Assembly (NCBI GenBank): GCA_963662465.1
Contig: OY759599.1
Location: forward strand, 2,816,001-2,880,000
DNA: 64,000 bases
Origin: Desulfatiglandales bacterium
Lineage (GTDB): Bacteria; Desulfobacterota; DSM-4660; Desulfatiglandales; Desulfatiglandaceae
Reading direction: 5' to 3'
Shown here: piece after piece, positions 28,068 through 52,021 of the stretch
Numbering within the stretch: the first letter of the stretch is position 1
Layout of the letters: every line of letters begins with the position of its first letter
Translations under genes and position numbers: made by a program
Notes under the pieces: generated by a model
Databases searched by the model: none
What the model was told of the DNA's origin: nothing
What the model saw: only the letters and a program-made list of their open reading frames with translations

Positions 28068-28290
28068 TCAAGGAGCGTCCTTCAGAACCATTTCCACCGC
28101 CGTTCTGAGCTTTTCCAGCTTCAGCGGTTTTTCCAGAAAATCCGACGCGCCCAGTCGCATCGCTTCCAGGACGTGCGCCTTTTCCCCAAAACCAGTGACC
28201 ATAATGGCTTTGCAGGAAGGATCGATATCGCGGACCTTTTTCAGTAATTTCAGCCCATTCATACCAGGCATATTAATATCTGTAATCAGC
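28068..28290 (-). pseudogene. 5'-truncated response-regulator receiver domain
   Basis: LITDINMPGMNG...MVTG...ASDFLEKP; N-terminus replaced by the opposite-strand integrase fragment. Confidence 0.8.
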
Positions 28291-28764
28291 TTCAGAACGG
28301 AAGACACCAGAAACCGTCTCATGCTCGAACTTATGGGACGTGGTGGCATGAGAGTAGGAGAGGTTCTGAAGCTCACACATACTGACGTTGAAGCCAGAAA
28401 GATCTTTATCCGTGAGCCCAAAAGCGGAAAAGAAATGGAGGTTGTTTTTATCCCCAAAAAAGTAGCTGACAGACTCAAGGAGTACATCAGAGAGAAAAAG
28501 ATTCAACCTGATGAGAGAATTTTCCCCATAAGCTACTCCGCTGCGAGGATTGTTGTGATGAAAGCTGGTCAGGTTGTTGGTATCAGATTGAGGCCGCATG
28601 ACCTAAGAAGACATGCCGCAACTTTTGCCTTCCGGGCTGGAACCCCTTTGGAGATTGTCAGCAAGATTATCCTCCGCCATTCCAACCTGTCGACAACTCA
28701 AAGATACTTGGGTAAAGTCAGTGATATGGAAGCCATGAGATGGATTGACAATATTCACGGATAA
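28290..28764 (+). pseudogene. Catalytic half of a tyrosine recombinase (5' truncated)
   Basis: GMRVGE, KSG, HDLRRH, LRHSNLSTTQRY; no IntI-specific insertion visible. Confidence 0.88.
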
Positions 28765-28902
28765 ATGGAAAGAAAACCGGGTTGAGAGCCGAAGCGTCTC
28801 AGACCGAAGAGGTGAAGATTAGATCTGCCATCCTTTTCTATGCTTACACCAAAAAAAAGGTCCCAGGCAGGTGTTTTTCCAGACCTCCGAGCTCCCAGAA
28901 CT

Positions 28903-29042
28903 GGCAGAATATTCATATAGGTAATCTTCACTTCTGGATTAACAGCCTACGACGGCCGTGACCACAAGATGTGGGGGTCTCAAACACTTCCCGGAAGCGG
29001 TTTTCAAATATGGACCGGATGTAATATGTGGCTCATATCACA
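28903..29042. repeat. Conserved non-coding module Y, copy 1
   Basis: Gap-free alignment to 30806-30935, roughly 80% identity by hand count; ends in TGTAATATG-N5-CATATCACA dyad. Confidence 0.85.
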
Positions 29043-29180
29043 ACGTCGTCTTTGGTTGTGGTACGCAGTAAACACAAGTTTAGCCAAGAACCAATGTACG
29101 TTAGATACCTCAGGAATTTTTCAAAATACAATTGTATCCACATAATATCCATCGGCCCCGAAATGATTACCCCGATAGGG

Positions 29181-30407
29181 CTACTCGGTCACCGAAATTG
29201 AAGGAATGCTCTCATCGGCGTCTACATCCAATCCAAGTGCCCTGGCCCGTTTTTTCCATTGCAGCCGAGCCTGAGCCTGCATATCTTCGACCCGATCCAT
29301 CTCATCGACGATCTCCACACCCAACAAAGTTTCGACAACATCTTCAGCCGTCACCAGCCCTTTGGTTCCACCGTACTCATCAACCACCAGGCCGATTTGC
29401 TGGCGTTGTTCGAGCAAGAATTCAAACAGGTGCGACAGGGGCATGGTATCAGGCACCGTTTTGATATCCCGCTTCAGTGTATCCAGTTTAACGTCGCCTC
29501 TATCGAGTGCCTTAGAATGCAGAAGATCGTCCCTGAGGATGAAACCGGTGATATGGTCCAAATCTTTTTCATAAAGCGGCAGGCGCGAAAATGTCACGGA
29601 AGGCCTGACATGCAGAGCCTCTGTGACCGTTATGTCCTGAGGCAGGCCGGAAATAACCGTCCGCGGCGTCATGATGTCTCTGGCCGTCAGGGAACTAAAC
29701 CGAAACAAATTCCGGATAATCCGCGATTCCCGTGGGTTGATTTTCCCGGCGTTCTCTCCGATATCAGCCATGGCGACAAATTCCTCAAGGCTGAATACGT
29801 GGCTGTTTTTGCCACGAGAAATAAAACGGGTCAGGGCTTCCGAGATTCTTATCAAGGGATAAAGCGCACATATCAAAGCTCGAACAAATCGCGCCGTGAG
29901 TGCGGCCAATGCTCGCCAGTAGACCGCGCCGATGGTTTTGGGGATGATTTCTGACAGAAACAGGATCATCAGGGTCATTATAGCGGAGAACAGGCCGAAC
30001 CAGGCGCTGCCGAACACCACCGTGGCTTTGGACCCTGAACCGATTGCTCCAACCGTATGGGCGATGGTATTCAGGGTCAAAATGGCGGCCAGTGACTGGT
30101 CCACATTATCCTGCTTTAATTGCTTCAGCAGGGCAGCGAGTTTGGGGTTTTTCTCTTGAAGCCCGGCGATATAGGAAGGGGTGATGCTCAAGAGAACCGC
30201 TTCGGCCACGCTGCAAAGAAAAGAAAAAACCAACGCCAGAAGGATGTAGGTGATCAGCGCCACCACGTCCCCCTGCGTATAGCCGCCATCCAACGGCCCG
30301 GTGGCCGCCATTCCCGCCCCAGCGGTACTTCCTGATGCAAAAGTGACGACCATGGCAACGATCACGAAACGGGCCCAATTTGAAAATAGCTTAGTCATTG
30401 TCGACAT
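29181..30407 (-). CDS. CNNM/DUF21-CBS domain membrane protein (hemolysin/CorC-like)
   Basis: FSFLCSVAEAVLLS, SEIIPKT, IMTPR, VVDEYGG. Confidence 0.92.
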   Translation of the reverse strand: MSTMTKLFSNWARFVIVAMVVTFASGSTAGAGMAATGPLDGGYTQGDVVALITYILLALVFSFLCSVAEAVLLSITPSYIAGLQEKNPKLAALLKQLKQDNVDQSLAAILTLNTIAHTVGAIGSGSKATVVFGSAWFGLFSAIMTLMILFLSEIIPKTIGAVYWRALAALTARFVRALICALYPLIRISEALTRFISRGKNSHVFSLEEFVAMADIGENAGKINPRESRIIRNLFRFSSLTARDIMTPRTVISGLPQDITVTEALHVRPSVTFSRLPLYEKDLDHITGFILRDDLLHSKALDRGDVKLDTLKRDIKTVPDTMPLSHLFEFLLEQRQQIGLVVDEYGGTKGLVTAEDVVETLLGVEIVDEMDRVEDMQAQARLQWKKRARALGLDVDADESIPSISVTE

Positions 30408-30629
30408 AAAACCTTCCGCAGTTTCAAAGTGTTCCCCCCAATTCAAGGCAAAGCTTAGTTAATTCCAAGCACCGCTGCGTTTTGTTGTCAGCCGAAATTT
30501 TGGGCGGGTGGTGATTACGCTGCAGAAAATTGAAATATCAAAAAAATGTTCCATATGGTGATTAATTGAGTTATATGAAATCCTCGAACATGTCAAAAGC
30601 AAGAGGTATGGTTTTCAATATTGGGAAAT

Positions 30630-31062
30630 ATGACTGCGGATACCGAACCTGATTGATGTCCTGCCTGGCACAATATGTGGGGGTTGATCAGTTTTCGGTT
30701 CATTCCAACTCAGGTCAATGATTCGTGCATAAGCCCAGCATAGCAGATCCGCTAAATCCATGCAAGACTGCCAGATCAACTGTTCACTTTTTACATGGAA
30801 AATCAGGCAGATGGTTTATATAGGAAGTCTTCACTTTTGGATTAACAATCTGAAAAGGGCGCGACCACTAGATATAGTGGTCTCAAACATTTGCCGAAAG
30901 CGATTTTCAAATATGGACCGGATGCAATATGTGGCACGTATATCAACACTTTAGCCATCTGATGTATGTTGGAGATATACCCAGCTGGTGTCATCCAAAA
31001 AACGGTCAGTTTCATGCATCGATCGGCACCCATTTCGCTCCCCTACCGATGATGATATCACA
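30630..31062. repeat. Composite non-coding element (modules X+Y+Z)
   Basis: X matches ~45980-46121 joined to 48131-48142; Y matches 28903-29032; Z (30958-31062) matches 48152-48256. Confidence 0.8.
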
Positions 31063-31288
31063 AACATTCGACCGCGAGAAATCGTTTGAGATATCGATTC
31101 AGACAAATAGTGGAGTTCACCTCATGGGACATACAAATCATTATATTTGCTTCAGGGCAAGACAAAACTGGTGGGGAGGTGGTAACCTCGTGCCAGAAGC
31201 CACCTGACGATTTTACTTAATTGGCGACAGGCCAATCCTGCCATCAAAAGGACCGTGTAATCCGTAACCGTCCCTCCCCATATTGGTA

Positions 31289-32056
31289 TTATGGTTTTAC
31301 AGTTAGCATCTGCAATATAAGCGACCCTTTTGGTGCTTTGGGTGCCTTACGCAAAGTTGTAGCGCCGGTCGAGCTTCCAATTAGCGTCAGTGATTTGTCT
31401 GCACTCAGGGTGATGTTTTCATCGTAAGTTCCAGCGGCAATCATTATCACTGATCCGGTGCTGGCTGCATTCACTGCCGCTTGGATTGTAAAATAACAGG
31501 GCTTTTTGCCCCCACAATTTCCATTAGCGCTTACGTAAAGTGTTGATGTGTAGGTTTTGTTTATGACAAGATTGTTCGGCGCTGCATAGGTGTCATGTGC
31601 AACTGAAACTGATCCATCAGCGTTGGAAAGTACGTGTTCTGAATTGACCAGCGAACGCTTATCCCTGTCTGCAAAGCCCACATCATAATTCCCGGGCGCC
31701 ACTTCAGATCCAATGTAGAGATCCAGCGTAAGGAGGACGCCGCTTGAGGCGCTGAAAACACCAGTGTCTGAGTAGGCAATCACTGTCCCGGAAGGGCCGT
31801 GGCTGTTGATTGTAAAGCCAGTGGACAACAATGCGCCTCGGGTGACGCCGCTCAATGTCACCCCTTCGGGCAACACGATTTTCGCGGTGACGCCCGCGTA
31901 GTTTTCCGTACCACCTGAAAGGCTGAGTGCCATTGAAGCTGTACCACCCGTCTGTCCGGTTGCCGAACCGAGGGATAGTCGAGGCTGAGCGCTGGCGAGT
32001 AATGGTGCTCCCAGAAGGATCAACATTAGTCCTGTTAACTTGGATAAGCCTTTCAT
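31289..32056 (-). CDS. Secreted protein with cohesin-like domain and short C-terminal beta-helix-like module
   Basis: Signal peptide; LSLGSATGQTGGTASMALSL...AGVTAKI pattern; C-terminal CGGKKPCYFTIQAAVNAA...GTYDENI. Confidence 0.65.
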   Translation of the reverse strand: MKGLSKLTGLMLILLGAPLLASAQPRLSLGSATGQTGGTASMALSLSGGTENYAGVTAKIVLPEGVTLSGVTRGALLSTGFTINSHGPSGTVIAYSDTGVFSASSGVLLTLDLYIGSEVAPGNYDVGFADRDKRSLVNSEHVLSNADGSVSVAHDTYAAPNNLVINKTYTSTLYVSANGNCGGKKPCYFTIQAAVNAASTGSVIMIAAGTYDENITLSADKSLTLIGSSTGATTLRKAPKAPKGSLILQMLTVKP

Positions 32057-32681
32057 GACATTTTTCCTCCATTTCCCCGGTTCAGCGAATCCCCTTCTTG
32101 AGCCAAACCAAGGGTATGACTTCGCATTGGCAATCGGCCATTGTGCGATTCACTTTGTTTTGATGGCGTTGTAAAAAAAGTCCATAGCAAATCTCTTATT
32201 TTATTATCATCCGGCGGGCTCATTCCACATCCTATTCCCAATCCTAATATTATGATGTAATTCACATAAATATTGATGGGGCGTGTTTCATTATCCCCAC
32301 CCTTAGCAATGGTGTGTGTGCTCGCCAGCAGGTTTTTTGTGTGTTGGGTGGAATTCTGGTTCTTTGAACATGAGTCTACGTAAGCGCTGTTATCATCAGC
32401 GCCCTCCCTTGTAGTGTGGTTATATGTTCCATTTTCGCTGGTCATGAATCGTTTCCGGCAATGCCGTCGCGTATCCTTGAACTGATCCAACTCCGCCGCC
32501 GACAGGTGGCAAGCATCCGTTTAGCGCCCGGTTCAACAGTTCTGAGCTTCATGCCTCCAGCGCGATTTCCTTGCTGACCGTGGCGTTGCATATTCCGTTT
32601 CCGCAGTGTTCATTTCGCGCGGGAGTCGCATCGATGTGGGAGCACCATCGTTCCGTTCGCGCCACCGGCCAGCCCGCCGCC

Positions 32682-35600
32682 TCACTCCATAGTCAACCCC
32701 ATGTTCAGAAAGGGTTGGCACAAGTTGTCTGATTGCGAAGCGCCGCCGGCGTTTGGCGTTTCGGTGACCGTGTAGTGAACATACATCCCGAGTCCGGCAT
32801 TATGCATCGACGCGTCGACGAGGAATTCGAAGACCGGATCGCTGGAAGGCCCATAGATCATTTCGTAATCCTTGCCTTCGTCATCTGTCCAACCGAGGAT
32901 CGCCTCGTATGTCAATTCGCTGGAGATGGAGAGCGTGGCGTCTCCGATGTCTAGAGAAGCGACGCTGACGGCGGCGGGCGATTCGATGCGAAGCCAACGC
33001 GGATACGGTCCCCAAATCACCGAGTCGATGATCAGCATGTTTCCATTGTTAAGGCCGGCATGCCATCGGTCCCTCTCGGTTATTAGGCCTCCATCGACCG
33101 TTACGGGCCCGATGGCGATCTCCGGGAAGTCCACGTAGTAAGCGTAGCTGCCACTATAATTTCCGGTGACATTCCAGGCGCCAAAGTCCACAGCGCCTGC
33201 CTTGGCGAGGCCCATCGCTATGCGGAAGGGTTTCTTCTCATCCGGCGCGGCGCTATCGTCGTGGGATGTGATCAGCGAGACATATTTCCACCCGGCGTCG
33301 AGTGTCGTCGCCGCGGAGGGCACTTCAAAATATGCCGGGTCATCGCCCTGAACCTGCGTCGAAACCAGCGAAGGCTTATCTGATTTCGAGTAACGAAGGA
33401 GAGCAAAGGCGGTGGATTTTGGGCTGCGCAAACTGACGACATACGATTCCGCGGGGTCGATTCCCGAGCCAATGTGCGAGTAGGCTTGATACAGCGCGCT
33501 GCCGATGGGGGCAACTTCGGATTCAGAGACGACGTATTTGCTGCACGTCGGATCGAAACAGAAGGTTTTCTTGACCAGGGATGAAATCAATCCGCTGTAA
33601 TCAAAGGGATAGACCTTGCCGGTCAGGATCGCCTGGTAGCAGGAGTCCAGCCAAAGGAAGCCTGACATTGTGGACGCCCGGCCCAAGGCATCGATGGGCT
33701 TTTTCCCGGCGTAAATTCCCTCGTACATTTTCCGCAGGGTGGAGAACCCACCGTAGCTGGGGCTGTTTTGCAGAAATCGGATGACCGATGCGCTGCCGTA
33801 CCCGTGGGCGGCGATCTCCTTGGTGGTGAGGCCGGCTTCTGGTGCCAGGCTGGCAAAGGGCGCCGTCATGTCGCCTACCGTCTGGGAGGGAATGTATTCG
33901 CCCGGCGTGCCGACGAAAAGTTCCTCGGCCCATGACGAGGCCGCTTCGTCAAGCCACAAATGTGGTGCTTTCCACTTGGCGGCGCTGTAGCGGTTGCGTG
34001 GATCGTAGAGCGACTGCACAAGGTGGAAGAACTCATGCCCGGCCGTCGCGCGGCGATTTTCGCCCTGCTCCAGAATGTTTACATTAATCGTCAACATGCC
34101 GTAATTCATACCGAACACATCGTTTGTTTGATAACCATGAGTGCTGCCCATGCCACCCTTGACGCAAACGCTGACGGGCCACTTTGTGCGACGCGCGTAA
34201 CTGAATCCGAGGTCCGGTTGCTTAAAGCGCGTGTACGCATCTTCCAGATCGTGGCCGAGATTCTCGATCAACTCCGGTTGCGTCGATGCGGGAAAACCGA
34301 TGTTGAAGTGGTTCGTTACATACGTGTAGTATCCGCCAAGAACGCCTGCGTTGAATTCAAATTCCCCGTCAGCCTCTCCCGCGCGGGCCGAGTCGTGGGA
34401 GACTTCGTTCGCGAGAACCGTACCGGGGGCGATGTCGTCGGGCACCGGGATTGTCAACAGAAAATAGTCTTCCTGTTCCGCATCCGGTTCGAGGATTGCG
34501 TAGCCGGTCTCCGTGCCCCCCAGGGAGCGCGCATAGCCTACCGTGCCAAGGACAATCAGCGGTGGTGTAGTGTAATCCGTGCGCGTGTCGCGAAGCCAGA
34601 GTTGCAGCGGTTGGTGGTAGGTTCCGGGGATGCCCGTGACAGAGTAGCCAACGGGAAGTTCGCTGGTTTCAAAATCCTCAAGAGTACCCGCCGTGACGCG
34701 CACGAGGCCATATTTGTCAAAGGCGCCGGCGGGGATCGATAGGCGGAACCCGTCGATCTCCAGGTCACCGCCTGCCGGTCCGACCAGTTTCGCGCCGTCG
34801 GGCAGCGGACCGTAGTCGATACCAAGAATCACGTCGGCAATTGCCAGCACATCGTCCTGGGTCACGACGCCGTCGTAGTCAAGGTCCGCAACATCGAGCT
34901 CCGGCAAGATTGTGCCGTTCTTCATGCCGGCGCAGCGCAGCACGTCGGCGACGTCTATCAAGCCGTCGTGGTTTGCATCGCCCAGCAACGAGAAGGTGGA
35001 ACTCTCGATGATGGCGAGTTGCTCGGCGCTCCAGGGGGAACAGTCGCCGGCATCATCGACGGCTTGGACACTCCAATAGTAGGATCCCGTGGGAAGACCG
35101 GAAAGCGCATAGCCGGGGCCGCCGGGAATCCGGCAGGTGCCGAGGTCGCGCTCAGCGCCCGGAGAAACAACATCGCACCCGCCTGCTTTCCTGCCGACGC
35201 GTAGCCGATAGCGCAAACTTGCCGCCGGGGTTTCAGCATCCGTCGCCGCGTTCCATCGCATCGTCATTGCGCCCATTCCGATGTCGGCGGCCAGCCCATC
35301 GGGCGTGGTCGGCGGCGTGTTGGCCGTCTTCAACCCATCCGGATCGGCCGCGCGGTTGGTGACGACGGCACTGGTGAAGGAGAAATTGGGATGGTCACTA
35401 TCGACGATCGTAGAACCCGCATAGAAGGCATCCAGGTCGCCATCGTTGTCCATGTCGAAAATGCAGAGTGGACCCATCGCGATTTGCGTCAGAGGAGTTC
35501 CGGTGTTCTGGAAACTGCCATCCTCCTGTTGGACGAGAAAACGTACAGTGGGAATCTTACTGACCGAGTAGCCGGTGGATTGTTGGTGCGTACCGGTGTA

Positions 35601-37754
35601 GAAGAGGTCGAGCCGTCCATCGTTGTTGAAGTCAGCCCATCGCAACCGGGGATTTTCCTTGCCTGCGGGAAAACCGGACTGAACGAGCGTGAAGCGATCG
35701 CCGTCGTTGTGATAAATGCGCAAGTCGGGGTCCATGCGGAAACCGGTGCCGACTGCAACGCGGTGAGTTCCGATGATCGCCACGTCCGGGCGGCCGTCGC
35801 CGTCGTAGTCCCCGAAGGCCGTGCCGGCTTCGTACATCGGATCACCGCCGTCGATGAAGGGGAGCTCCTGGAAGGTGTCGTCGGGAAGGCGCACATTCCA
35901 GCCCCAGTCAAGAACACCATCTCCATTGATGTCGACGGGCGGACCGGGATAATGGGTCCGATCCGGCAGGGGATTGCCCCAATTCTTCCAATAGCCTCGG
36001 CCGTTGCCAAGGAAGACGAGACCCGGTGTGGCGATATCGAGTTCCCCGTCCCCATTCCAGTCCACCCAATCGATCTGGCTCGCGTTCGGATAATCGGAAA
36101 GCGGGATGTGAGTGAGGATTTCACGGAAATCCCCCCCGCCTTCGTTCGCGAAAACGACAATTTGCAATAAACGGGTCGTTGGATCGTACCATGCTCCAGC
36201 CAGGTCCGGGCGGCCGTCCTTGTTGAAATCGCCGAACGCGCAGCCTTCACTGCCGTACATTCCAACAAATCTGGCAAGCGGCTGCTGGTATGCCGTGAAG
36301 TTCCCCGCGCCATCGTTCAGGTAAACCTGCCAGTTCAACAACAGGTCCGTATCGCCGTCCCCGTCAATATCGGCGGACGTGGCGGCGGACGCGGCGGAGA
36401 CACTGAATGAGTGCTGCTCGCTTTCCAGGAGCGACGCATAGACGATGTCGCCGTAGGGGTTTTCCGTCATGTCGCGCGTGACGAGCGGAAGCCCCGGCGC
36501 GCGGATCGTACGTCCCGCGACGTCCTCCACCAGAAATTCGTGGATCGTCCCGAGCGCAATGTCTGGGTACATGGAAAGGTAGGCGTCCGTGACGCGCAAA
36601 CCGAGGGCCGCCGGTATTGTCGGAAACTCGTCCGTCAAATCAATGGCCGCGCGGCATTCGATGGGCCGCGTACCAATCATCTTGAGGGGTTGGCGCGACC
36701 AGTCGGGCGAGGCCCATTCGCCGGTCAGGAGAAGCATGCCCAACTCGGCGCGCCGAGAATGCGCAAAATCCAGAATCGCGAAGACGGCCGGTTTGTAGCC
36801 GATTCGATCCGTCATCGTGTAGAATTCCAGCGGATTGTGGCCGAGCACCGCGGGCCGTTCGGACATCCAATCGTAACCCATCCAGAAAAAGCCTGTCTGG
36901 CCGCGCTCGGGGCACTCCGTTCCCCAAAATGTTCCCCAGGAGTTCACAGCTAGAAACGCGCCGTGGCGGGTTTCCGTGCCGTTGAAGTACTCCCGATCGT
37001 CGTCGTAACCGATGAAGCAAACCGCATGTCCACCACGGAAGTTGCCGGATTGAGCGAAGATGACACTATTGTCTACCCCAGGACCGGAAATCGCGCCTCT
37101 CCCGTAGTAGGAATCAATGCTTTCCGTCACGTTGAGAACGCCGACCACCGGCTCGCCCGACGCGAGCATCGTCTTCAGCGTCGCGAAATTGTCATCCGGT
37201 GTTGTCGTGAACGTGGACCAGGACTTGGCGCGGAAGAGCGCCGCGCTCTTCCAGTCGTTCTCTTCCGGCATCGAGTCCAGTGATTGCCCCTCGGGGAATT
37301 CCTCGTACTTGCAGGTGCCGTGTTGGACGAGAAAATCGAAAGCGCGGGAGAATTGAATACCCGTGCTGGTATCGACTGCCAACATGTTGTAGGGCATTGC
37401 GGCACTGGGGACCTGAGACGTCAGGTTTGGATGCACCCAGTTGCGTTCCCGGGCCTCGTGCCAGCCCTTCAGATAGTAGCAACTTGCCCACGAGACACAG
37501 GAGCCGTATCGCTGCTGGCGAACGGAGGGGAGGAACTCGTGATTGATCCAGCGGGCGGGCAAGGGCAAATCCGCCGTGCGGCGGACAAGAATGGAATTGG
37601 CGGAAAGCGAGTGGGAGCGAGCCGCGTCCAGGTCCGCCTTCTCCGCCGGCAGCAACCCCATCGGCATCAGGCCGGGAGCGTCCTGCGCTGCGGCGCTTAT
37701 ACAAAAGATAGCACCAAGCGCCAATACAACCACGATCCAAATCATCTTCTTCAT
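32682..37754 (-). CDS. Large secreted multidomain protease: papain-like C1 + FG-GAP/VCBS repeats + FN3-like + dockerin + HExxH metallopeptidase-like
   Basis: Signal peptide from MKKMIW (37754); QQRYGSCVSW, GHAV, NSWG; repeated GDxDGDGxxD; GDANHDGLIDVAD...ADLDYDGVVTQDD; TAGHEFFHLVQ. Confidence 0.85.
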   Translation of the reverse strand: MKKMIWIVVVLALGAIFCISAAAQDAPGLMPMGLLPAEKADLDAARSHSLSANSILVRRTADLPLPARWINHEFLPSVRQQRYGSCVSWASCYYLKGWHEARERNWVHPNLTSQVPSAAMPYNMLAVDTSTGIQFSRAFDFLVQHGTCKYEEFPEGQSLDSMPEENDWKSAALFRAKSWSTFTTTPDDNFATLKTMLASGEPVVGVLNVTESIDSYYGRGAISGPGVDNSVIFAQSGNFRGGHAVCFIGYDDDREYFNGTETRHGAFLAVNSWGTFWGTECPERGQTGFFWMGYDWMSERPAVLGHNPLEFYTMTDRIGYKPAVFAILDFAHSRRAELGMLLLTGEWASPDWSRQPLKMIGTRPIECRAAIDLTDEFPTIPAALGLRVTDAYLSMYPDIALGTIHEFLVEDVAGRTIRAPGLPLVTRDMTENPYGDIVYASLLESEQHSFSVSAASAATSADIDGDGDTDLLLNWQVYLNDGAGNFTAYQQPLARFVGMYGSEGCAFGDFNKDGRPDLAGAWYDPTTRLLQIVVFANEGGGDFREILTHIPLSDYPNASQIDWVDWNGDGELDIATPGLVFLGNGRGYWKNWGNPLPDRTHYPGPPVDINGDGVLDWGWNVRLPDDTFQELPFIDGGDPMYEAGTAFGDYDGDGRPDVAIIGTHRVAVGTGFRMDPDLRIYHNDGDRFTLVQSGFPAGKENPRLRWADFNNDGRLDLFYTGTHQQSTGYSVSKIPTVRFLVQQEDGSFQNTGTPLTQIAMGPLCIFDMDNDGDLDAFYAGSTIVDSDHPNFSFTSAVVTNRAADPDGLKTANTPPTTPDGLAADIGMGAMTMRWNAATDAETPAASLRYRLRVGRKAGGCDVVSPGAERDLGTCRIPGGPGYALSGLPTGSYYWSVQAVDDAGDCSPWSAEQLAIIESSTFSLLGDANHDGLIDVADVLRCAGMKNGTILPELDVADLDYDGVVTQDDVLAIADVILGIDYGPLPDGAKLVGPAGGDLEIDGFRLSIPAGAFDKYGLVRVTAGTLEDFETSELPVGYSVTGIPGTYHQPLQLWLRDTRTDYTTPPLIVLGTVGYARSLGGTETGYAILEPDAEQEDYFLLTIPVPDDIAPGTVLANEVSHDSARAGEADGEFEFNAGVLGGYYTYVTNHFNIGFPASTQPELIENLGHDLEDAYTRFKQPDLGFSYARRTKWPVSVCVKGGMGSTHGYQTNDVFGMNYGMLTINVNILEQGENRRATAGHEFFHLVQSLYDPRNRYSAAKWKAPHLWLDEAASSWAEELFVGTPGEYIPSQTVGDMTAPFASLAPEAGLTTKEIAAHGYGSASVIRFLQNSPSYGGFSTLRKMYEGIYAGKKPIDALGRASTMSGFLWLDSCYQAILTGKVYPFDYSGLISSLVKKTFCFDPTCSKYVVSESEVAPIGSALYQAYSHIGSGIDPAESYVVSLRSPKSTAFALLRYSKSDKPSLVSTQVQGDDPAYFEVPSAATTLDAGWKYVSLITSHDDSAAPDEKKPFRIAMGLAKAGAVDFGAWNVTGNYSGSYAYYVDFPEIAIGPVTVDGGLITERDRWHAGLNNGNMLIIDSVIWGPYPRWLRIESPAAVSVASLDIGDATLSISSELTYEAILGWTDDEGKDYEMIYGPSSDPVFEFLVDASMHNAGLGMYVHYTVTETPNAGGASQSDNLCQPFLNMGLTME

Positions 37755-38365: not shown

Positions 38366-38401
38366 GAAGGCCCGAAGTAGCCGCTTCGGGCCTTCTTTTT
38401 T
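38366..38401 (+). terminator. Terminator-like hairpin in transposon leader
   Basis: Perfect 12-bp stem GAAGGCCCGAAG/CTTCGGGCCTTC plus T-run, just after TAGAAT (38353-38358). Confidence 0.65.
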
Positions 38402-38477
38402 GACCACCGGATAGAGCCGGAAGCCACACACACGCCAATTTTATATAAGTGTGTTTCCGGCCAATTGCAAGGCCGGA

Positions 38478-42283: not shown

Positions 42284-42381
42284 GATGTTCGCCAAAGGGC
42301 CGGTTTTGAGGTCTGAATATCACCGGTCTGTTTGAATCTCGTTACACGAATATCAGAAATTACCTTGTCTTGGAGCTTGAA

Positions 42382-42579
42382 ATGAGAGGTGGAAAACGGG
42401 TAGGCGCCGGCCGAAGAAAGAAACCGGAACATTTGAGACGTGAACTGCTCACCATTCGTCTCCCCAAATGGATGATTCTACAGCTGAAAAAAAACGGGGA
42501 AATTGGATATTTGATTGAGGATCAATTGGCGAAGGGAGGCCTCCTGAATTTACCGGACGACTATGACATAGACAAATAG
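42382..42579 (+). CDS. Small putative DNA-binding (ribbon-helix-helix-like) passenger protein
   Basis: RGGKRVGAGRRKK...TIRLPKW. Confidence 0.55.
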   Translation: MRGGKRVGAGRRKKPEHLRRELLTIRLPKWMILQLKKNGEIGYLIEDQLAKGGLLNLPDDYDIDK

Positions 42580-43804: not shown

Positions 43805-45218
43805 GGGAATTCCCAAGAAATAACCTACGCATTATTTCAAACATAATGTTATCCTGAAAAGATAAATGCATCAGAATCTTTATTTGCATTGAAACGCAAT
43901 TTAAAAAAATGAGGGGACAAAAATTGAAGGAGGTGGTATGAGCATAATGTATGAAAGACATGAAATTCATACATTGAAAAAAGTAACGGGTAAAAAGAAT
44001 GAACGGAGAAACAAAAAATCTGATAAAAGATGCATGCAGACGACTGACTGGTTACAAAAGAAGAGCATATCAGGCCGACATTACCAGGAAATATTTCAAC
44101 GGGAGTGCATACAAAGCCGAACGGGAGATGGGATGGGGGAGAGAGTGTGTAACAAAAGGCCTTAAAGAAGCCGAAAGCGGGATCAGATGCATGGATAATT
44201 TTGAGGGACGGGGAAAAAAGAAAACAGAAGACACGATTCCCGGTATTAAAGCAGACATAATATCCCTTGCAGAACCTCAAACTCAGGCGGACCCTGCCAT
44301 GAAAAGCTCTATCACATATACAAGAATTACAGGAAAAGCTCTCAAAAAGGCACTGATTGATGAGAAAGGATACGACGGTGAGGATCTTCCCTCTAACAAC
44401 ACTCTGATCAACATGTTGAACCGCATGGGATACAACCTGAAACGAGTCCTGAAATCCAAACCTGCGAAAAAGATAAAACAGGTCGATGAAATATTTGAAA
44501 ATGTATGGAAGGCAAACCGTGACTCTGATGAGAATCCCAACTCTCATCGGATTTCTATTGATGCCAAGGCAAAAGTGAATATAGGCGAGTTCTCAAGAAA
44601 CGGAAAGTCACGGGATCGGGAAGCGAAGAAAGCTGAAGACCATGATATGAATCCCGAAATGAAATTGGTTCCGTACGGTATTCTTGACGTTTTGAGCGGA
44701 ATGCTTTCTATTTTTTTCGGCACATCTTTTGAAACAAGTGATTTCATCGTTGACTGTTTAGAGATGTGGTGGGAAAAAAACAGAATTACCTATCTTCATA
44801 TAAACGAGTTGGTTATCAATCTTGACAATGGTCCGAATTCAGCAAGCGGTCGGACTCAATTCATTCGCAGAATGACCGAATTCAGTGACAAAACAGGTTT
44901 GCGAATCCGCCTGGTTTATTATCCTCCCTATCATAGTAAGTACAATCCGGTTGAAAGATGTTGGGGAATATTGGAGGGACATTGGAACGGAGAAATATTG
45001 GATTCAATATCAAAAGCAGTCAATTGGGCATCTACGATGACATGGAAAGGGATAAAGCCCATTGTCACGTTGGTGGAAAAGGCATATAAGAAGGGAATCC
45101 GGCTTACAAAAAAAGAAATGAAACCTTACGAAAACAGAATTAAACGTTCCGACACACTGCCCAAATGGGATGTACTTATTGAATCTGGAGTTGGGTAGTT
45201 TATTTCTTGGGAATTCCC
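43805..45218 (+). mobile_element. ISAzo13-family IS
   Basis: Perfect IR GGGAATTCCCAAGAAATAA at both ends, TTA on both flanks. Confidence 0.92.
43999..45198 (+). CDS. ISAzo13-family transposase
   Basis: ISIDAK, LDNGP, YYPPYHSKYNPVER. Confidence 0.93.
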   Translation: MNGETKNLIKDACRRLTGYKRRAYQADITRKYFNGSAYKAEREMGWGRECVTKGLKEAESGIRCMDNFEGRGKKKTEDTIPGIKADIISLAEPQTQADPAMKSSITYTRITGKALKKALIDEKGYDGEDLPSNNTLINMLNRMGYNLKRVLKSKPAKKIKQVDEIFENVWKANRDSDENPNSHRISIDAKAKVNIGEFSRNGKSRDREAKKAEDHDMNPEMKLVPYGILDVLSGMLSIFFGTSFETSDFIVDCLEMWWEKNRITYLHINELVINLDNGPNSASGRTQFIRRMTEFSDKTGLRIRLVYYPPYHSKYNPVERCWGILEGHWNGEILDSISKAVNWASTMTWKGIKPIVTLVEKAYKKGIRLTKKEMKPYENRIKRSDTLPKWDVLIESGVG

Positions 45219-45780
45219 TTACGCTGTTGTATTTGTGGGTAAAGGCAAATCGCTCGACCAAATCTTGGTAAATCGCTACGGCATTCCTCCCGAGCTTCAC
45301 CTGCTTTTCAATCCATTCTCGGTGAGGCTCACATGCTGATCTGGCATGGAGTGGAATCGCCCGTTTTTCTCCCTTGAATGTGCTGTTTACCGGTGGCCGG
45401 GGTGGGGGATTTTCACTGATGATGCAATCAGCCCCGGTGGCCAGGGTGGGGGATCTTGAATTTAAGTCGGAATCTTCGGGTAAAAAGCCACTTTCTTTTG
45501 CGTATTTTCGGATCGTTTTCCTGTCAATATTGGTCTTACGATGTACTTCACGCTGACCAACGCCATTTTTAAGTAGGGTAATGATGGTAGATTTCTTGTC
45601 CGGCTTCAAAACGTTCATCCTTTCTTCCTCCCAATTCAATTAAATTGCATTGGGAGATGGTATAACGTCCTGTCACCATTTTGTGAATTGAGCCGAAGAT
45701 CAAAAATCTACATTTTGAACCTCTTTAGGTGGGGGATTTTCAAGTGGCCACAGGTGGGGGATTTTGGGTGGCCGCCCGGG
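45219..45780 (-). pseudogene. Left end and truncated istA of a second IS21-family element
   Basis: End repeats GGTGGGGGATTTT (45728-45767); MNVLKPDKK...SACEPHREWI...AIYQDLVERFAF cut by ISAzo13. Confidence 0.82.
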
Positions 45781-46121
45781 ATCGGAGGCGAAACGGTTGG
45801 AATCTCAAAAATAAGATGGAATGAAAGGAATTAAATGGATTCCTTATAAAAGGAATCTGGGAATCAAAAGGAAGGAATCAAATCTCGCAACATAACGGAC
45901 CCCGCAACATAAATTGAGAGTATCCCCAAAAAAACAGTGTCTCTGAAGTGTTGATATTCCCTTACATATCTGGAATTGCCTTCACGTTCCTGGACCTAAA
46001 CCGTAAGATCCTACCACCACAACATATTGTGGTCAATCTGGTTTCCGATTATCCGGTCACAGAAAAAGAGTACGTGCATTGAGCCAGTATCCCACATCCG
46101 TCAAAACCGTGCAAGGGTGAC

Positions 46122-46226
46122 CCACGGTGAATTTGTTCTAACGCTAATCCATTGATTTGTTTGAATTGATGTGTCCTTCATAAGGTTTTGATATCAAAGG
46201 TTTACAAATAGAACAAATTTGCCCTG
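46122..46226. mobile_element. MITE-like miniature element (~105 bp)
   Basis: 15/18 terminal IR (CACGGTGAATTTGTTCTA / TAGAACAAATTTGCCCTG) flanked by AAGGGTGAC direct repeats. Confidence 0.68.
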
Positions 46227-46235
46227 AAGGGTGAC

Positions 46236-48121
46236 CAGCGCTGAAGCATGAATAGCTCTAAATTTGTTCTGCAGCCTGTAGCAGGCAACTTTTCCATCCT
46301 GATAGCTGAATCCGGCACATGACTATTTTGATAATAGCATGATATTGGTTGTTTTTGGAAAAGGAATTAAAATTGGGCACACTACCTCCGTCCCATCAAA
46401 TATGAGGTTTTTTTCAGGATAAAAATTTCGAGTCTAGATCAGCCGAAGCTGAAAGTTGGCTTCAAGACGTTGGCGTGTACTCACAGGGTCTAGCCATCGA
46501 CCGCTAAGTGTACTACGAATGAATTTTATAAACCCGCGTATGCTGTACTCTCGTACTATTTCTACAAGACATTCAGAGTAAACAGCTAAAACATTGAGAA
46601 AGTGCCCCAATCGCATCAAGTAGTGGTATCCTCTCATGGCATTCCAATCGTACGAGAAAACGTGTTCATATTGGTATCCATGGTGCTTTTCAACTAGGAA
46701 ACTCGCTTCAATTCCCCAGCGGTGCCGAGCCCCTAAATTACATCTTTCGTGCAAATTTGATCTGGTAAAAGGTTTATCGGAAATCCAAGCATGACGCGAT
46801 TTCTTGGTCACAACAGCAGTAGAATCCTTGGCGATCTCCTCCCAAGTTTCGTTGCATGTCACCATATGGAGGATTTGCCTTTTTTTGCCGTTTGGCCCAT
46901 AGCAATATTCAATATTGTTTACCCACTCAAAGCGCTGCTTTCTGTCGCCCCAGGTCATATTAAAAAGGTTGTTGGTTTCAATTTTTCTGAGGCCTTCAAA
47001 TTCTTCCCACATACTTGGAAGACTCTTGCTTTGCAATACAATCATGAAGTCCCAACGGTTTTTTCGGCATAGCTCTATCATAGGACCATTGGGATACAAG
47101 CCATCTAAGAACAATATTATCGCAAGGCGAGAAAACGCTTTCTTCAATCTTCCGGCTAACCTCTTAAACGCTTTTTGTTCACAGTCCTGTTTTGCTGTTT
47201 CCGTATCACCTTCTTCATAGTTCGAGAACTCACTCATTAAGGGAATTGTCATCCCGTTGTGAAAAACCAAATTTGCTTCCAACACGCCTACATGATACTG
47301 CATTTTGGTGCCATCACCATCTTTCACCTCACGTTCGGAACACTCTGCACTCCAAAGTGTATCCCGACAGAACTTTTGGCTACCATCAATACCGATAGGG
47401 TAAGCATTTTGGTTCAGATACCTGGAAAATTTCTTCTTCTTTATTAACCTCTTAACCGCTTCAATAAGCGCTTCTTCTATTAAACCCACCTCAATTACAG
47501 CCAGCACCCGCTTGAGAGTATCGTTGTGAGGGATATCTTTCAAATCTGGGAATAGCAATTTAAGGCTTTCCATAAATTGAGGCAGGGTTATTTCTCTGTT
47601 CGCTTCGCGCCTGGAAGCCATTTGAAAAACAAACGTGAGTATCCCATACATTATGAGCAAATCAAGCTTGTGCTTGATTTTTTTGGGGCTTCTCAAGTCT
47701 TTTATCTTTGAAATCGTTTTCAAAAGACCCGGTAACTGGGAGTGAAAAATCCGCGATTGTTCTGTTGCAACAACCTGACGTGCTGCTTGTTCCTCTTCCA
47801 CATTATTATATTGGCTCTTCCGATTAGGGATTGAGGGCTTCTGTGGAATGGTCATCCCTTCGGCTATTTGTTTTGCGCGTAAGGCCTTATGGGCAGCATT
47901 TCTCTCTTTATTCAGCGTTTTTATCTCCTGCCGATTTGGACGTTGGCTCGGCTTGTTCATGATCCCCTCCGATTTTTAACATAATGGATTTTTAACGAAT
48001 ATCGCTCCATTAAGCTAATATTATGAGGCTTTTAGGAAGTTCAGCTTATTCTACAAAATAATTTTAAAAGATTTGTAACATACTATGATTTAAGATAATT
48101 TGCATACGTGCTTCAGGGCTG
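46236..48121 (-). mobile_element. Insertion sequence (1886 bp)
   Basis: IR CAGCGCTGAAGCA / TGCTTCAGGGCTG; 9-bp target duplication AAGGGTGAC (46227-46235, 48122-48130). Confidence 0.9.
46434..47960 (-). CDS. DDE transposase (IS4/ISNCY-like, distantly similar to 19627-20982)
   Basis: IGIDGS, KQDCEQKAF, LDGLY, ARHRWGIE. Confidence 0.88.
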   Translation of the reverse strand: MNKPSQRPNRQEIKTLNKERNAAHKALRAKQIAEGMTIPQKPSIPNRKSQYNNVEEEQAARQVVATEQSRIFHSQLPGLLKTISKIKDLRSPKKIKHKLDLLIMYGILTFVFQMASRREANREITLPQFMESLKLLFPDLKDIPHNDTLKRVLAVIEVGLIEEALIEAVKRLIKKKKFSRYLNQNAYPIGIDGSQKFCRDTLWSAECSEREVKDGDGTKMQYHVGVLEANLVFHNGMTIPLMSEFSNYEEGDTETAKQDCEQKAFKRLAGRLKKAFSRLAIILFLDGLYPNGPMIELCRKNRWDFMIVLQSKSLPSMWEEFEGLRKIETNNLFNMTWGDRKQRFEWVNNIEYCYGPNGKKRQILHMVTCNETWEEIAKDSTAVVTKKSRHAWISDKPFTRSNLHERCNLGARHRWGIEASFLVEKHHGYQYEHVFSYDWNAMRGYHYLMRLGHFLNVLAVYSECLVEIVREYSIRGFIKFIRSTLSGRWLDPVSTRQRLEANFQLRLI

Positions 48122-48151
48122 AAGGGTGACAGATCAATTGTTGAAGTCGAG

Positions 48152-48256
48152 TCTGAGATATGTTGGAGATATACCAGTCTGATGTCAACCAAAAAACGGC
48201 CAGTTCCATGCGTCTCTCAACCCTCAGTCCGCCCCCCTCTCAATGATGATATCACA
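48152..48256. repeat. Conserved non-coding module Z, copy 2
   Basis: TATGTTGGAGATATACC...CCAAAAAACGG...ATGATGATATCACA shared with 30958-31062. Confidence 0.85.
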
Positions 48257-48568
48257 TTATTTGCTACAGTTGAATTTAATGGACGCATCCGCTATTTCTG
48301 ACGGATATAGCAAGACATGGCATATGATCTTTATGATTGCAGGGAACGGCCATTTTTCAGAAGCAAAATCAGCGAATATTCAGTCATAAGTTGTATTTTC
48401 CCTTTGAGAAATGACTTTGTCAGAAACTCTGGATGCTGTCCAATTTAATAGCATCACAACCACCAATAACCTGCGATACAATATGCTGTAGCCTGTGCAG
48501 AAGTAAGAGCTGAAAACCGGACCAGCCTCAAATTTACCATCTCCAGTCCCGGACTAATTTCTTTAATT

Positions 48569-51466
48569 CTAAAACCCGTAGCGCGTTGAATGCCCTTTGG
48601 GTATGCTTCGTTCCCCTCCTGAATTTCCACTTTTATCCTGCATAGAGGAGCCTGATCCACCGATGGGCGCCCAGCCATCGTCAGAAGAAGGTCTTTGAGG
48701 GGCGGGTTGTGGATTTTTGGTTATGGGCGGAGGGCTGGTTTTTGGCCTGAGGCTCTGCCATTCATCTTTCTGGCGCCCCATGCTTTCGAGCGTTTTGACG
48801 ATCTCCTTGTTATCCGGATCAAGTTTTTCCGCTTCCTCCTTCTCCTTTCCGGCGATCACCCCCTGCTTTACGGCGTTGGAGAGCTTGCTCGCGTCGCCGC
48901 CTGCGTCCATCCCACCGGTACTGGTCGTAGTTAGATTGCCTCCTGTATCAGTGGGCTTAAGTGGTAGTTTTATGATCGTGGGCATTACTTCTTTTCCATT
49001 CGCGAGGGTGAGTTCATCTCCTTCTGGGTTCATAGTTAAGGTAGCCTGCTCACCAGCAGCTATGGGGTTGTCTCCATAGTCGTGTATTTCCTCGCCTGAT
49101 GGATAAGTGAGTAGATGGAAGTTTCCTGATCCCGTACCAAGGAGCTCAATCTCATAGGTATCTTGAGGCAGGACAAAGAACCACTGCTTATCACCCTTTT
49201 CATCTTTCCAGAAGTAGAAATCTATAGGTTCAAATTCTGCAACCTTATCACCATTTGGAAATACCCCTAAACGATGTCCCTGCGAGTTGACAATAAGCAC
49301 ATCCACCGGGCATTTAACTTTTGCCGCTACGGTTTTGGGCGGCTTGACCTTGGGCTTAGGCCATTGTGGTTTCCACCCACTGCCCTCATGCAACTTCTCC
49401 ACACTCCTCTCAATCGTCCAAGGAAAAAAATTAGTATCGGCACTATACCAATGCGCTTCTTGTCTTCCATGAGGGTCCAGAATAATCACTCCAGATCCAG
49501 TAGGAGGAATAGTCCAAGATCCATGATCATTCCACTTCCCCCTGTCCCACAAAGCAACTGCATTGTGTTCTGTGGTTCTTTCGTCATTCCAAGGCTTTTT
49601 ACCGGGTGTAAACCAATTTCCATCGACTGCTGAATAGTCCCATCCCTTTAACTTAGACAGAAATTTAGCATTTTCATCATCTGCCTTTTTGTTCTTAAGA
49701 TTGTTCAAAAACCACAAGGTCTTGTACTGCATGGCTACGCAGCTGAATCGGCAGCATTCATCACAGTGCAGCATTTCACACGCAAAATTGTAATCTACAC
49801 CATCCATCTGCGGATGTATCGGTCCACTCAATGCTTTTTCGTCTGTTGTTCCGTCCGGCCATGTGTGTGAGGTTGTGCCAAATTTTTTGTACCATTCCTT
49901 TATTTTCTCCAAAGGTGTCTTCCCGACTTTACCTAATTCCAACACTTCACCTGGCTTGGGGGCATCCTCAATTGAATATACTAATGGAATTTTATCAGAA
50001 GCCCTTAACTTTAAAGCGAAATCATTCCCGAGATTCATAAAATCCTGGATTGACCTCTTGTTTTGAGGGTGATTTGGTTTTACCATCACCCAAAAATCTC
50101 CATTTACCTGTGGGATACTCAATGTATTAAGCACCATTATATCTTGAATGCCCAACACATCTGAAACATGGCATTGGACAGGATTCAAGTCCTTATCTAC
50201 CATCACACCATGAATAATGGCTAAGTTAAAGGGAACCGTTTTTTCTGCTTTTCCTATGATATTAAGCTCTTTATACAAAACCCCTACTCTTATTGTGGCA
50301 GTTAGGATATCTCTTAAGGTTTTATAATACGCACTCCACATTATCACATTTTCTCTGGGATCCCGTATCTTCAATTTGGTGGAATACTTTCCGTTATCAT
50401 CCAACATAAATCCTGTTGCTTTTTCCAGTTCCGTGAAGTAAATTTGTTTGTTGTTCTTATCCACTACGGTAATATCAACAATGCCTTTAAAGGGTTTGCC
50501 GTCTTGGTCTAATGCGGTAATAGTGATAGTAACTTCGCCAGGGACTGGAAGTATTTTTTCTGTCTCAATTTTAATATTTGTTCCGGTTACTTTTTTCTGC
50601 AGTATAATGTTACGTGCCTTTGAAAATTGCTTGGTTCCCTCGGTTGGCACATAAAGTTTGTAATTTCCTTCAACACCAGAGGTCACGCTTTTGCCTAGAT
50701 CCGGGATGCTAATAGTAGCCCCGCTTACAGGATTCCCATCTTCATCCTTTACGACACCTTTCAGGGTAATACTTGAGGGCTTATAGTCCTTGGTGGCTAA
50801 TGTATCAGACCATGGTAGATAACCGGGAGCTTGGACCTTTATGCTGAATGCAACACCTTCAACGACTTCTCCACCTATAAGACGGTGCTTCACCGCATTG
50901 GCATATAAAGCCTCGGCGATCGTCATAGCATTCCTTTTGGCATTTCCAAGCATCGAAAAGTAGAAACGACCACTTTGCCATTCCACAATGCCACGACCCG
51001 AAGTAGCGGTGTCAATAATAGCGGATCTGTTATGAAATTTTGTTGCCTTAACAAAGCTGGTACCACTGAACGAGAAGCCTTCGGCTATCACAGCCTCTGC
51101 CGCTGTTTCTGTGGGGTGTGCTACGATTTTTATCACCAGCCCCGCCTCCACCCAGTCGCCTTTACGAAATGGAACAAGGAGGAAGTAGCCGACACACGCA
51201 CCTTTTACTAATTCACCTCCTTCATAGTTGTACAGTCTTTTCGGGCCCTGTATCTCCGGACAATGGCGATGAGGCTCACCATTAACGTCCTCAATGTCAA
51301 AGCAAGCTCTCTGGTCCCAGCCGAACACAGCGCCGGTCTCCCTCAGAACCCGCTTGATGATTGCCTCCTGTGGGTCGCTAACCTGGGCGGCAACCGAGGG
51401 AGATAATATCAGAACACATATGAGAAACATAAGCAGAACTAAAGAAATAATTTTGCCCTTTTTCAT
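48569..51466 (-). CDS. Large secreted mosaic protein of unknown function
   Basis: Signal peptide; carboxypeptidase-regulatory-like segment (GVVKDEDGNPVSGATI); low-complexity tail. Confidence 0.75.
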   Translation of the reverse strand: MKKGKIISLVLLMFLICVLILSPSVAAQVSDPQEAIIKRVLRETGAVFGWDQRACFDIEDVNGEPHRHCPEIQGPKRLYNYEGGELVKGACVGYFLLVPFRKGDWVEAGLVIKIVAHPTETAAEAVIAEGFSFSGTSFVKATKFHNRSAIIDTATSGRGIVEWQSGRFYFSMLGNAKRNAMTIAEALYANAVKHRLIGGEVVEGVAFSIKVQAPGYLPWSDTLATKDYKPSSITLKGVVKDEDGNPVSGATISIPDLGKSVTSGVEGNYKLYVPTEGTKQFSKARNIILQKKVTGTNIKIETEKILPVPGEVTITITALDQDGKPFKGIVDITVVDKNNKQIYFTELEKATGFMLDDNGKYSTKLKIRDPRENVIMWSAYYKTLRDILTATIRVGVLYKELNIIGKAEKTVPFNLAIIHGVMVDKDLNPVQCHVSDVLGIQDIMVLNTLSIPQVNGDFWVMVKPNHPQNKRSIQDFMNLGNDFALKLRASDKIPLVYSIEDAPKPGEVLELGKVGKTPLEKIKEWYKKFGTTSHTWPDGTTDEKALSGPIHPQMDGVDYNFACEMLHCDECCRFSCVAMQYKTLWFLNNLKNKKADDENAKFLSKLKGWDYSAVDGNWFTPGKKPWNDERTTEHNAVALWDRGKWNDHGSWTIPPTGSGVIILDPHGRQEAHWYSADTNFFPWTIERSVEKLHEGSGWKPQWPKPKVKPPKTVAAKVKCPVDVLIVNSQGHRLGVFPNGDKVAEFEPIDFYFWKDEKGDKQWFFVLPQDTYEIELLGTGSGNFHLLTYPSGEEIHDYGDNPIAAGEQATLTMNPEGDELTLANGKEVMPTIIKLPLKPTDTGGNLTTTSTGGMDAGGDASKLSNAVKQGVIAGKEKEEAEKLDPDNKEIVKTLESMGRQKDEWQSLRPKTSPPPITKNPQPAPQRPSSDDGWAPIGGSGSSMQDKSGNSGGERSIPKGHSTRYGF

Positions 51467-52021
51467 TCTAGACTCCCTGGTTTTTTTTGAGTCCGGGGTC
51501 GCCCATTAAAGATACCTTGTTGTTCAACATGCGCATGATCACTCCTTTGATAATATTGGTGGGTTAAAATCCATGTGATATTTCTGGATCGAGGAGATTA
51601 GCTGGTCGTGAATTGACTGTCCGAAAGTGATCTGCAAATGTGTTGCGTTTCCAATAAAAAACCCAAAGGATTGGACCATCAAAAACCTGAAATATGCCTT
51701 ACATTCTTTGATGAGAATATTGCCTCGAATTTTGGAAGATTCTAGCTTCTCCCTGACTCATTTTTTATGCCAAAACACAAAATATTGTCAACGTCAAAAA
51801 AGTTGTGATATCATAAAATCAGGTGGCTTGAACGAACGTTGTTATCATGCCATCTCTCAGGGCCGGTCGCAACATAAATAGCATGACCATTCCTCTGAAT
51901 CCTCAGACGCCAGAATTTTTTTAATCTCCCTTTTAAAACTGTCAACGTAAGTTTTTGAATAACCGTTGGTTTCCATGTGGGAAATGAGTTTGAGATAATT
52001 ATCCCGCAGATTTTGTACATT

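Follow-up and report, generated by a model that had tools for sequence, protein, structure and literature searches.

The stretch of interest is a 64,000-nucleotide window (positions 2,816,001–2,880,000 of contig OY759599.1, assembly GCA_963662465.1) from a Desulfatiglandales bacterium, and the system in question is an array of genes separated by recurring non-coding modules, which an initial annotation made from the sequence had described as integron-like. The window is part of a closed 8.16-Mb genome (G000; G and L numbers denote the genomes and loci compared), and the nearest relatives with a label belong to Desulfobacteraceae/Desulfatiglandales. Genome comparison points to an array of two alternating kinds of module, joined at two dyad sites—core6 and core7—where they are likely shuffled by site-specific recombination, probably by a module-borne XerA-like tyrosine recombinase. 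We give this reading, which is drawn from sequence, slightly better than even chances. The names core6, core7, T, U and W were coined in this analysis; modules X, Y and Z were named in the initial annotation.

Profile searches of the genome returned 22 matches to T, 32 to X, 9 to U, 24 to Y, 28 to Z and 11 to W, in 27 loci; a locally shuffled genome, used as a control for chance, returned none. The usual order is T-X-[HU, recombinase, U]-Y-Z-W, with the cargo between W or Z and T, on the opposite strand. Indeed, the nearest gene is on the opposite strand for all 24 Z, all 16 Y and all 11 W modules and for 18 of 19 T modules, giving 69 of 70 module–gene pairs (these share genes and are not independent). 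X resembles the reverse of Y (z = 4.8) and T the reverse of Z (z = 4.0), so that cargo modules (type B) and gene-less or recombinase-bearing modules (type A) each have inverted arms, and alternate. Cargo modules carry one to three genes, mostly for secreted proteins, and the genome has dozens of secreted-protein genes enclosed in this way. One Z-cargo-T unit (G000:C1:2379515–2383765) is inverted with respect to the X and Y modules that flank it.

T ends, and Z starts, in a common dyad of two arms, GATAT-like and ATATC-like (arm symmetry r = 0.76), with a directional spacer between them. Core6, at T|X joints, reads GATAT-ATTGAG-WTAT, and core7, at Y|Z and X|Z joints, reads GATAT-GTTGGAG-ATAT; the spacers are 6 bp (7 on a symmetric reading) and 7 bp, respectively. 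A core matrix gave 98 matches in the genome, 52 of them in islands that make up 3.2% of it, an enrichment that is partly circular since the matrix was trained on 40 of these joints. Of the 52, 50 are co-oriented. The matrix also located cores at joints on which it was not trained (e.g., at ~2.13 Mb, 3.855 Mb and 6.58 Mb). The two spacers hardly vary (48/52 and 36/42, at sites picked by the matrix). Across 22 regions, core types alternate in 38 of 53 core-to-core steps, the commonest step being core7-gene-core6 (19 times).

Similarity between copies mostly stops at these cores. The test drew pairs of sites from three genomes (G000, G010 and G004) and five further loci, took those in which one flank is homologous, and counted a breakpoint where similarity in the other flank ended within 10 bp; the pairs are not independent. 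Breakpoints were found at core6 in 62 of 81 pairs and at core7 in 57 of 73, about 77%, in agreement with the initial annotation's remark that similarity stops at dyad motifs; five motifs internal to the modules gave 17/81, 19/107, 10/32, 16/107 and 16/51 (15–31%). The clearest single case, 2,445 bp long, is a cargo unit that holds a pentapeptide-repeat gene and is 95.2% identical between G000 and G010 from exactly core7 to core6, with flanks at 41% and 49%. Some of the genes fenced by modules are shared with relatives and occur among other neighbours there, and one orthologous position with shared flanks spans 3.8 kb in G000 vs about 37 kb in G010. Thus, cargo between modules varies across genomes, and the flanking genes are not invariant. 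Arrays of Z, T and W are also present in G004. In a contig of separate origin, from a different study, the match runs only between the end of X and the start of Y.

Three full-length recombinase copies (96–100% identical) exist in G000, each with a divergent HU gene and a core7 290–294 bp downstream. The protein (263–279 aa) keeps the R-K-H-R-H-Y set of tyrosine recombinases (PF00589), with R143, K166, H225, R228, H252 and Y261 kept in at least 97% of 120 homologues, and has no arm-binding domain match in Pfam. By sequence, its closest characterised enzyme is archaeal XerA (NF040815; PDB 4A8E), at 123 bits and E 1e-15, below the family cut-off of 220; unlike archaeal XerA, it is multi-copy, patchily distributed and coexists with host XerC and XerD. 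It scores 43.6 bits against the IntI model (TIGR02249; cut-off 265). The genome holds five true intI matches, each at least 64 kb from any module match, and its XerC and XerD genes also lie elsewhere. At the 5' end of the recombinase, a poly-T run (L001:13485–13500) differs by one base between genomic copies, shifting the frame upstream of a second ATG; this may be a slippage switch or decay.

The initial annotation had tied the modules to this recombinase family, and X, U and HU are indeed physically linked to it in independent contigs, a linkage that weakens with distance. Of 11 metagenome loci with at least 80% recombinase identity, 6 have X immediately upstream, and 9 have X or U next to the gene; within each of the pairs L093/L094 and L095/L096, the two loci seem to come from one organism. 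L095 reads rec-U-cargo-T-core6-X-HU-rec-U, two units in tandem. In G004, homologues at 60% identity have a core7 95 bp downstream.

The window contains the following features of the array and its surroundings, including RIT (recombinase in trio) elements, insertion sequences (IS) and a miniature inverted-repeat transposable element (MITE).

22195–22506, plus strand: second piece of the same recombinase family, made up of the N-terminal 28 aa and a diverged internal part (66%), no modules adjoining
28068–28289, minus strand: 3' half of a response-regulator gene, cut at the start of the recombinase fragment
28290–28764, plus strand: catalytic half of the XerA-like tyrosine recombinase, a 5'-truncated pseudogene, 89–90% identical to the full-length genomic copies
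28764–28897, plus strand: module U, the 3' flank of the recombinase
28905–29060, plus strand: module Y, copy 1; begins ATATAGG at 28915, with a palindromic NrdR-like box and an internal dyad
29057–29076, plus strand: damaged core with 7-bp-type spacer, three bases short compared with G010
29181–30398, minus strand: cargo gene for a CNNM/CBS protein, 99% identical in G010 with different neighbours
30557–30578, plus strand: core6, spacer ATTGAG at 30565–30570
30564–30779, plus strand: module X, subtype X2 (profile match)
30808–30951, plus strand: module Y, copy 2
30960–30982, plus strand: core7, spacer GTTGGAG at 30968–30974
30960–31100, plus strand: module Z, copy 1, left arm of a cargo module
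31151–31284, minus strand: module W, a predicted structured 3' RNA immediately 3' of the cargo stop codon; closing stem of 7 bp, then NCCA
31289–32056, minus strand: cargo gene for a secreted protein resembling cohesin (a weak match to Pfam at E 0.022, below cut-off)
32682–37754, minus strand: cargo gene for a 1690-aa secreted C1 peptidase with FG-GAP repeats and a dockerin-like/EF-hand stretch
37844–37857, plus strand: left half of a core6 split by a RIT, ATTGAG at 37852–37857
37858–45912: RIT copy 1 with nested IS elements, within core6, flanked on both sides by ATTGAG (37852, 45913)
45913–46121, plus strand: duplicated ATTGAG and module X
46122–48130: MITE and DDE-type IS in the end of X, with the 9-bp repeat AAGGGTGAC three times (46113, 46227, 48122)
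48154–48260, plus strand: core7 (GTTGGAG at 48162–48168) and module Z, copy 2
48569–51466, minus strand: cargo gene for a 965-aa secreted protein with carboxypeptidase-regulatory-like domains
51671–51870, plus strand: module T, right arm of a cargo module, containing TGTGATATCAT at 51804 and partly the reverse complement of Z
51868–51877, plus strand: RIT-end relic CGCAACATAA, in the expected position of T's core6
55488–55511, minus strand: end of RIT copy 2, within another core6, in opposite orientation

The order and coordinates of recombinase, modules and cargo given in the initial annotation were borne out, as were the boundaries of RIT, MITE and IS. The Y copies, put there at roughly 80% identity, are 80.3% identical over 142 nt (28903–29044 vs 30806–30947; E 1e-30), and the Z copies 79% over 105 nt (30958–31062 vs 48152–48256; E 1e-18). 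The two 'X' copies of the window proved to be two subtypes, unlinked by blastn and linked by profiles (consensus z = 15). Cargo base composition differs as described (GC/GC3, the latter at third codon positions): 0.53/0.61 for the CNNM gene, 0.51/0.49 for the cohesin-like gene, 0.59/0.71 for the protease gene and 0.45/0.45 for the 965-aa gene. A second recombinase fragment had also been placed correctly, near 22247. Other points needed revision. The recombinase at 28290 is a truncated copy, and the response-regulator gene to which it is fused is broken (its relative in G010 extends past the fusion point); TGTGATATCAT, the last item of the order given there, sits inside the additional module T and is not the end; the cohesin label comes down to a sub-threshold match; and modules W and U and both core sites were absent from that account. 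Decayed coding sequence was considered as a source of the modules and rejected: T, X, Y, Z and W have neither triplet periodicity nor a common open frame, and their gaps are mostly not multiples of three. In module U, one frame is open in 6 of 8 copies.

Three further observations concern the surroundings of the array. A group II intron with a frameshifted reverse transcriptase (52022–53850, minus strand) lies within the region of RIT copy 2; a broken phage-type integrase (56976–57912) beside tRNA-Phe (57840–57912, minus strand) lies at the island's right edge; and a truncated copy of a multi-copy IS91-family element (21543–22170, minus strand), whose transposase reads away from its TTCCTAT end, abuts the second recombinase fragment.

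The RITs bear on the cores in their own way. Full RITs and five mini-RITs are inserted in core6, preceded by ATTGAG in every case; the mini-RITs, a gene-less 500-bp family of 99% identical copies that targets core6 (G000:C1:3423689–3424171, 3748045–3748527, 3851385–3851867, 6582365–6582847 and 6586700–6587182), follow ATTGAG in 5 of 5 cases, with exact duplication in 4 of 5. RIT targeting thus independently marks core6 as a recombinase-type site.

In the arrays, type B modules read Z-W-cargo-T, with the genes between inverted arms, and type A modules X...Y, likewise with inverted arms and either gene-less or carrying the divergent HU and recombinase genes. Core7 (GTTGGAG) connects A to B and core6 (ATTGAG) B to A; in the proposed scheme, the cores are the crossover sites. 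Since like cores have the same spacer and lie as direct repeats, recombination between them would excise or integrate an A+B pair; one core6 and one core7 crossover would, via a cointegrate, exchange one module on its own, a route that has been modelled for dif modules. HU and the 150–250-bp arms may serve as accessory architecture, and homologous recombination within the long arms likely contributes extra mosaicism. We consider the linked recombinase, together with HU, the likeliest catalyst, and rate this role as marginally more probable than not. The initial annotation had proposed serial site-specific capture by a non-IntI recombinase. Site-specific assembly of co-oriented cargo by such a recombinase family is supported by the core dyads, the breakpoints at cores, cargo that differs between genomes and the X/U/HU linkage. 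The sequences show the anatomy, the polarity, the cores, the breakpoints and the varying cargo; the enzyme, its reaction and the intermediates, including circles and serial capture, we infer.

Several findings weigh against this scheme. Firstly, the boundaries are not all at cores, nor do cores always alternate: Y start is also a frequent boundary (75/153 pairs), which together with the W edge (33/51 pairs) makes for secondary boundaries; the CNNM segment shared with G010 ends at Y start and within X2, away from the cores; and 15 of 53 core steps lack alternation, including duplicated spacers around mini-RITs and probably missed cores. Secondly, the recombinase does not follow the modules everywhere. 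Of eight family genomes with T, three have a recombinase match (E ≤ 1e-25), G010 has fragments only, and four drafts have none; modules accompany the recombinase at one of the 26 loci compared at phylum level and at none of the seven distant ones from metagenomes. Moreover, all three G000 HU copies lack the ribosome-binding site and ATG that are present in L095, L105 and L107, and a lone recombinase has no obvious need for two arm types. Thirdly, three G000 islands are missing at the orthologous G010 loci, yet there is no clean empty site, other changes blurring the breakpoints. No circle or joined form was found in four sequencing runs, which were read as contigs only (contigs drop rare forms); of the joints listed from these contigs, most have short sides and likely derive from other module copies, and two clean ones are skips in repeat-rich cargo genes. 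A gene loss beside a repeat in G310 proved to be a microhomology deletion.

The loss of HU starts, together with an IS200-like element upstream of one G000 recombinase copy and the truncated copy in the window, indicates that the system may be fading in G000, where it looks partly decayed.

The arrays could instead be built by a single integrative element, with X as its left end, then the recombinase and the cargo, and T as its right end, that stacks in tandem at core6 and decays, with core7 as an internal resolution or capture site; we give this accretion of integrative mobilizable elements (IMEs) and cis-mobilizable elements (CIMEs) a small but real chance of being right. L095 reads as two such units in tandem, T-core6-X is frequent, and the gene-less derivatives resemble CIMEs as described in PMC5704250; in such accretion, too, units with a recombinase and decayed ones stack in tandem, with att sites at their joints. 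Core7, however, is no less sharp a boundary than core6, and one cargo unit moved from core7 to core6 without its X. Nor was a common chromosomal target or fixed target gene apparent: few of the 27 loci are near tRNA genes, and three loci have no clean empty site. In contrast to IMEs, the arrays have a simple recombinase and a second, internal core; no relaxase, conjugation gene or mobilisation module was seen among 53 proteins scanned, which cover a minority of the island genes.

It is unlikely that the sites are real but another enzyme—the RIT recombinases, or host XerC/XerD acting on degenerate arms—moves the modules, with the XerA-like gene as a passenger. RITs do target core6 in G000, one RIT begins just after T in G004, and RIT enzymes remain candidate module movers; the core6 geometry is dif-like (6-bp spacer, GATAN arm), and G010 is rich in modules while having recombinase fragments only. 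RITs as described in PMC8138268 likewise use tyrosine-recombinase sites with a 6-bp spacer. They consist of three adjacent recombinases with repeated TTATGTTG ends, whereas the array has a single recombinase, and T and Z lack such ends; here, RITs are parasites of the array. Over 72 sites, the best agreement of a core arm with that of host XerD is 8 of 11 positions (6 sites), most reaching 5–6 of 11, and the best with that of XerC is likewise 8 of 11 (3 sites). The position of the recombinase inside X...U is, furthermore, kept in several organisms. A likely chromosomal dif site lies at G000:C1:1823260–1823290, 37 kb from the GC-skew maximum.

Slightly less likely still is that the modules are dispersed regulatory or decayed transposon-end repeats from which RecA-type recombination makes mosaics, the cores being the ends of conserved blocks. 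Such recombination requires homology across the joint, which is absent at the cores; the sharpest boundaries are at dyads with a fixed, directional 6/7-bp spacer and join unrelated left and right flank types. It is favoured by the secondary breakpoints within arms, by where the CNNM segment ends and by the NrdR-like boxes that X and Y contain. Finally, it is very unlikely that Y start is an IS91-type rolling-circle origin (oriIS), from which IS91-family transposases would mobilise Y-cargo-X units in trans: it matches the end of the genome's multi-copy IS91-family element at about 16 of 22 bases with one gap (hand count), and both the CNNM segment and the recombinase-U unit end at Y start, but unlike in IS91/ISCR elements the resemblance is partial, the 4-bp target beside IS91 copies (mostly CTTG) is not conserved before Y, X folds into no terIS-like hairpin, the modules hold no HUH transposase, and the cores are left unexplained.

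Returning to alternating modules shuffled at two cores, the inverted Z/T and X/Y pairs make the design resemble the dif modules (pdif) of Acinetobacter rather than integrons. As described in PMC13141974, that system occurs only in Acinetobacter and is run by host Xer enzymes. The likeness extends to two module types with different arms that alternate (in dif modules, obligatorily), module ends with inversely oriented arms, gene-less modules and mobile elements that target the sites, and, in the proposed scheme, to crossover between like spacers, excision of pairs and movement of single modules via cointegrates. Unlike dif modules, the arrays here are chromosomal in Desulfobacterota, rather than on Rep_3/OrfX plasmids (no module match in a collection of 72,556 plasmid records; loci chromosomal); their cores lack XerC/XerD arms and one has a 7-bp spacer; their arms are 150–250 bp; one module type contains a dedicated XerA-like recombinase and HU; and cargo has a single polarity.

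Integrons proved the wrong analogue. With integrons and clusters of attC sites lacking integron-integrases (CALINs), as described in PMC8618304, the arrays share co-oriented, mostly single-gene cargo of mixed origin, a nearby tyrosine recombinase, and the occurrence of integrase-less arrays. They differ in that the recombinase is not IntI and sits inside a module with cargo on both sides, that two site types alternate in each period, and that there is no attI/Pc platform or lone entry site beside an active integrase. Nor was an attC-type hairpin found by folding 9 modules on both strands with DNA parameters (z +1.4 to −2.3; no attC covariance model was used). Integrons show a replication-strand bias; the loci here do not (14 leading, 13 lagging). 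None of the simple-recombinase subgroups in PMC8138268 is described there with such a context; they were compared by description only, and that paper's profiles could place the protein. No description of such a system was found in the open literature (most subscription journals and supplements lay outside the search). This is a real, apparently undescribed cassette system that works like dif modules without being a member of them.

Among 24 cargo proteins scanned from other loci were S74-chaperone proteins (5), NHL propellers with C13 peptidase, and caspase-domain, pentapeptide-repeat and Ig-like domain proteins; 7 of the 24 had no Pfam match. In the window, the cohesin-like protein and the dockerin-like protease lie in one cargo module (31289–37754, minus strand) and are possibly a binding pair, both domains being below the Pfam cut-off. 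Two cargo genes elsewhere (G000:C1:1598163–1600031 and 6237018–6238979) have in common their first 22 residues and a 467-bp 5' region (99% identical, into T), and then diverge, which suggests that gene bodies may be exchanged under one leader.

Module W folds as RNA on the cargo strand (z −2.9) and lies directly 3' of cargo stop codons; after its 7-bp closing stem comes NCCA, with a variable N. Its topology is tRNA/tmRNA-like; Rfam had no match to it or to the other modules. Covariation in W was not significant (12–61 of 500 shuffles for four measures, 302 for a fifth). W occurs in 12 of 105 family genomes and, in G000, often after S74-chaperone genes. The palindromic box of X and Y agrees with the NrdR box at its six conserved positions, and 30 of its 42 genome matches are within modules; another (G000:C1:4875309) is upstream of the sole class I/II ribonucleotide reductase gene found, and the nrdR gene is inside the window at about 6452–6931 (minus strand). 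NrdR boxes are described as requiring a pair 15–16 or 26–27 bp apart (PMC13584703), and no pair at such spacing was noticed by eye among the predicted boxes in modules. A promoter scan of T was at chance level, PADLOC gave no matches, and a single-sequence structure model was unusable (predicted local distance difference test score of 36).

The recombinase family is abundant, with 4,258 clusters at E ≤ 1e-30 and members in 34 of the 105 genomes of the taxonomic family and in 21 of the 301 of the phylum. In a distant subfamily (43–47% identity, one locus 57%; L123–L125, L129, L130, L132, L135 and L136, from G189, G310, G351 and G382), a conserved core-like site lies ~50 bp after the recombinase stop codon. 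In other distant relatives (L102, L103 and L108; L099 and L104), other small divergent genes replace HU upstream of the recombinase. A downstream block of their own, which also recurs where the recombinase gene is absent, is present in some distant members; this is no more than suggestive.

We have likely encountered a gene-shuffling system not previously described, driven probably by its own recombinase rather than by an integron. In its fullest form, to which we give a little less than even chances, it would be a third cassette system, independent of integrons and of dif modules, in which a recombinase encoded by the system itself and HU travel as a module, capturing and reshuffling secreted-protein genes over dozens of chromosomal arrays via two alternating double-stranded cores, with its own RIT parasites and a cargo-terminal tRNA-like RNA, and with thousands of related Desulfobacterota recombinases that may run lineage-specific versions. 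Both cores are readable, which puts the mechanism within direct reach of experiment, and a recombinase with two sites coded by their spacers could, if the reading is true, serve as a tool for module exchange. The reading would also mean that the alternating-module design arose twice, once on chromosomes with its own recombinase and once as dif modules with host Xer, would give a function to an abundant, uncharacterised recombinase family, and would explain variation of secreted and surface proteins in these bacteria.

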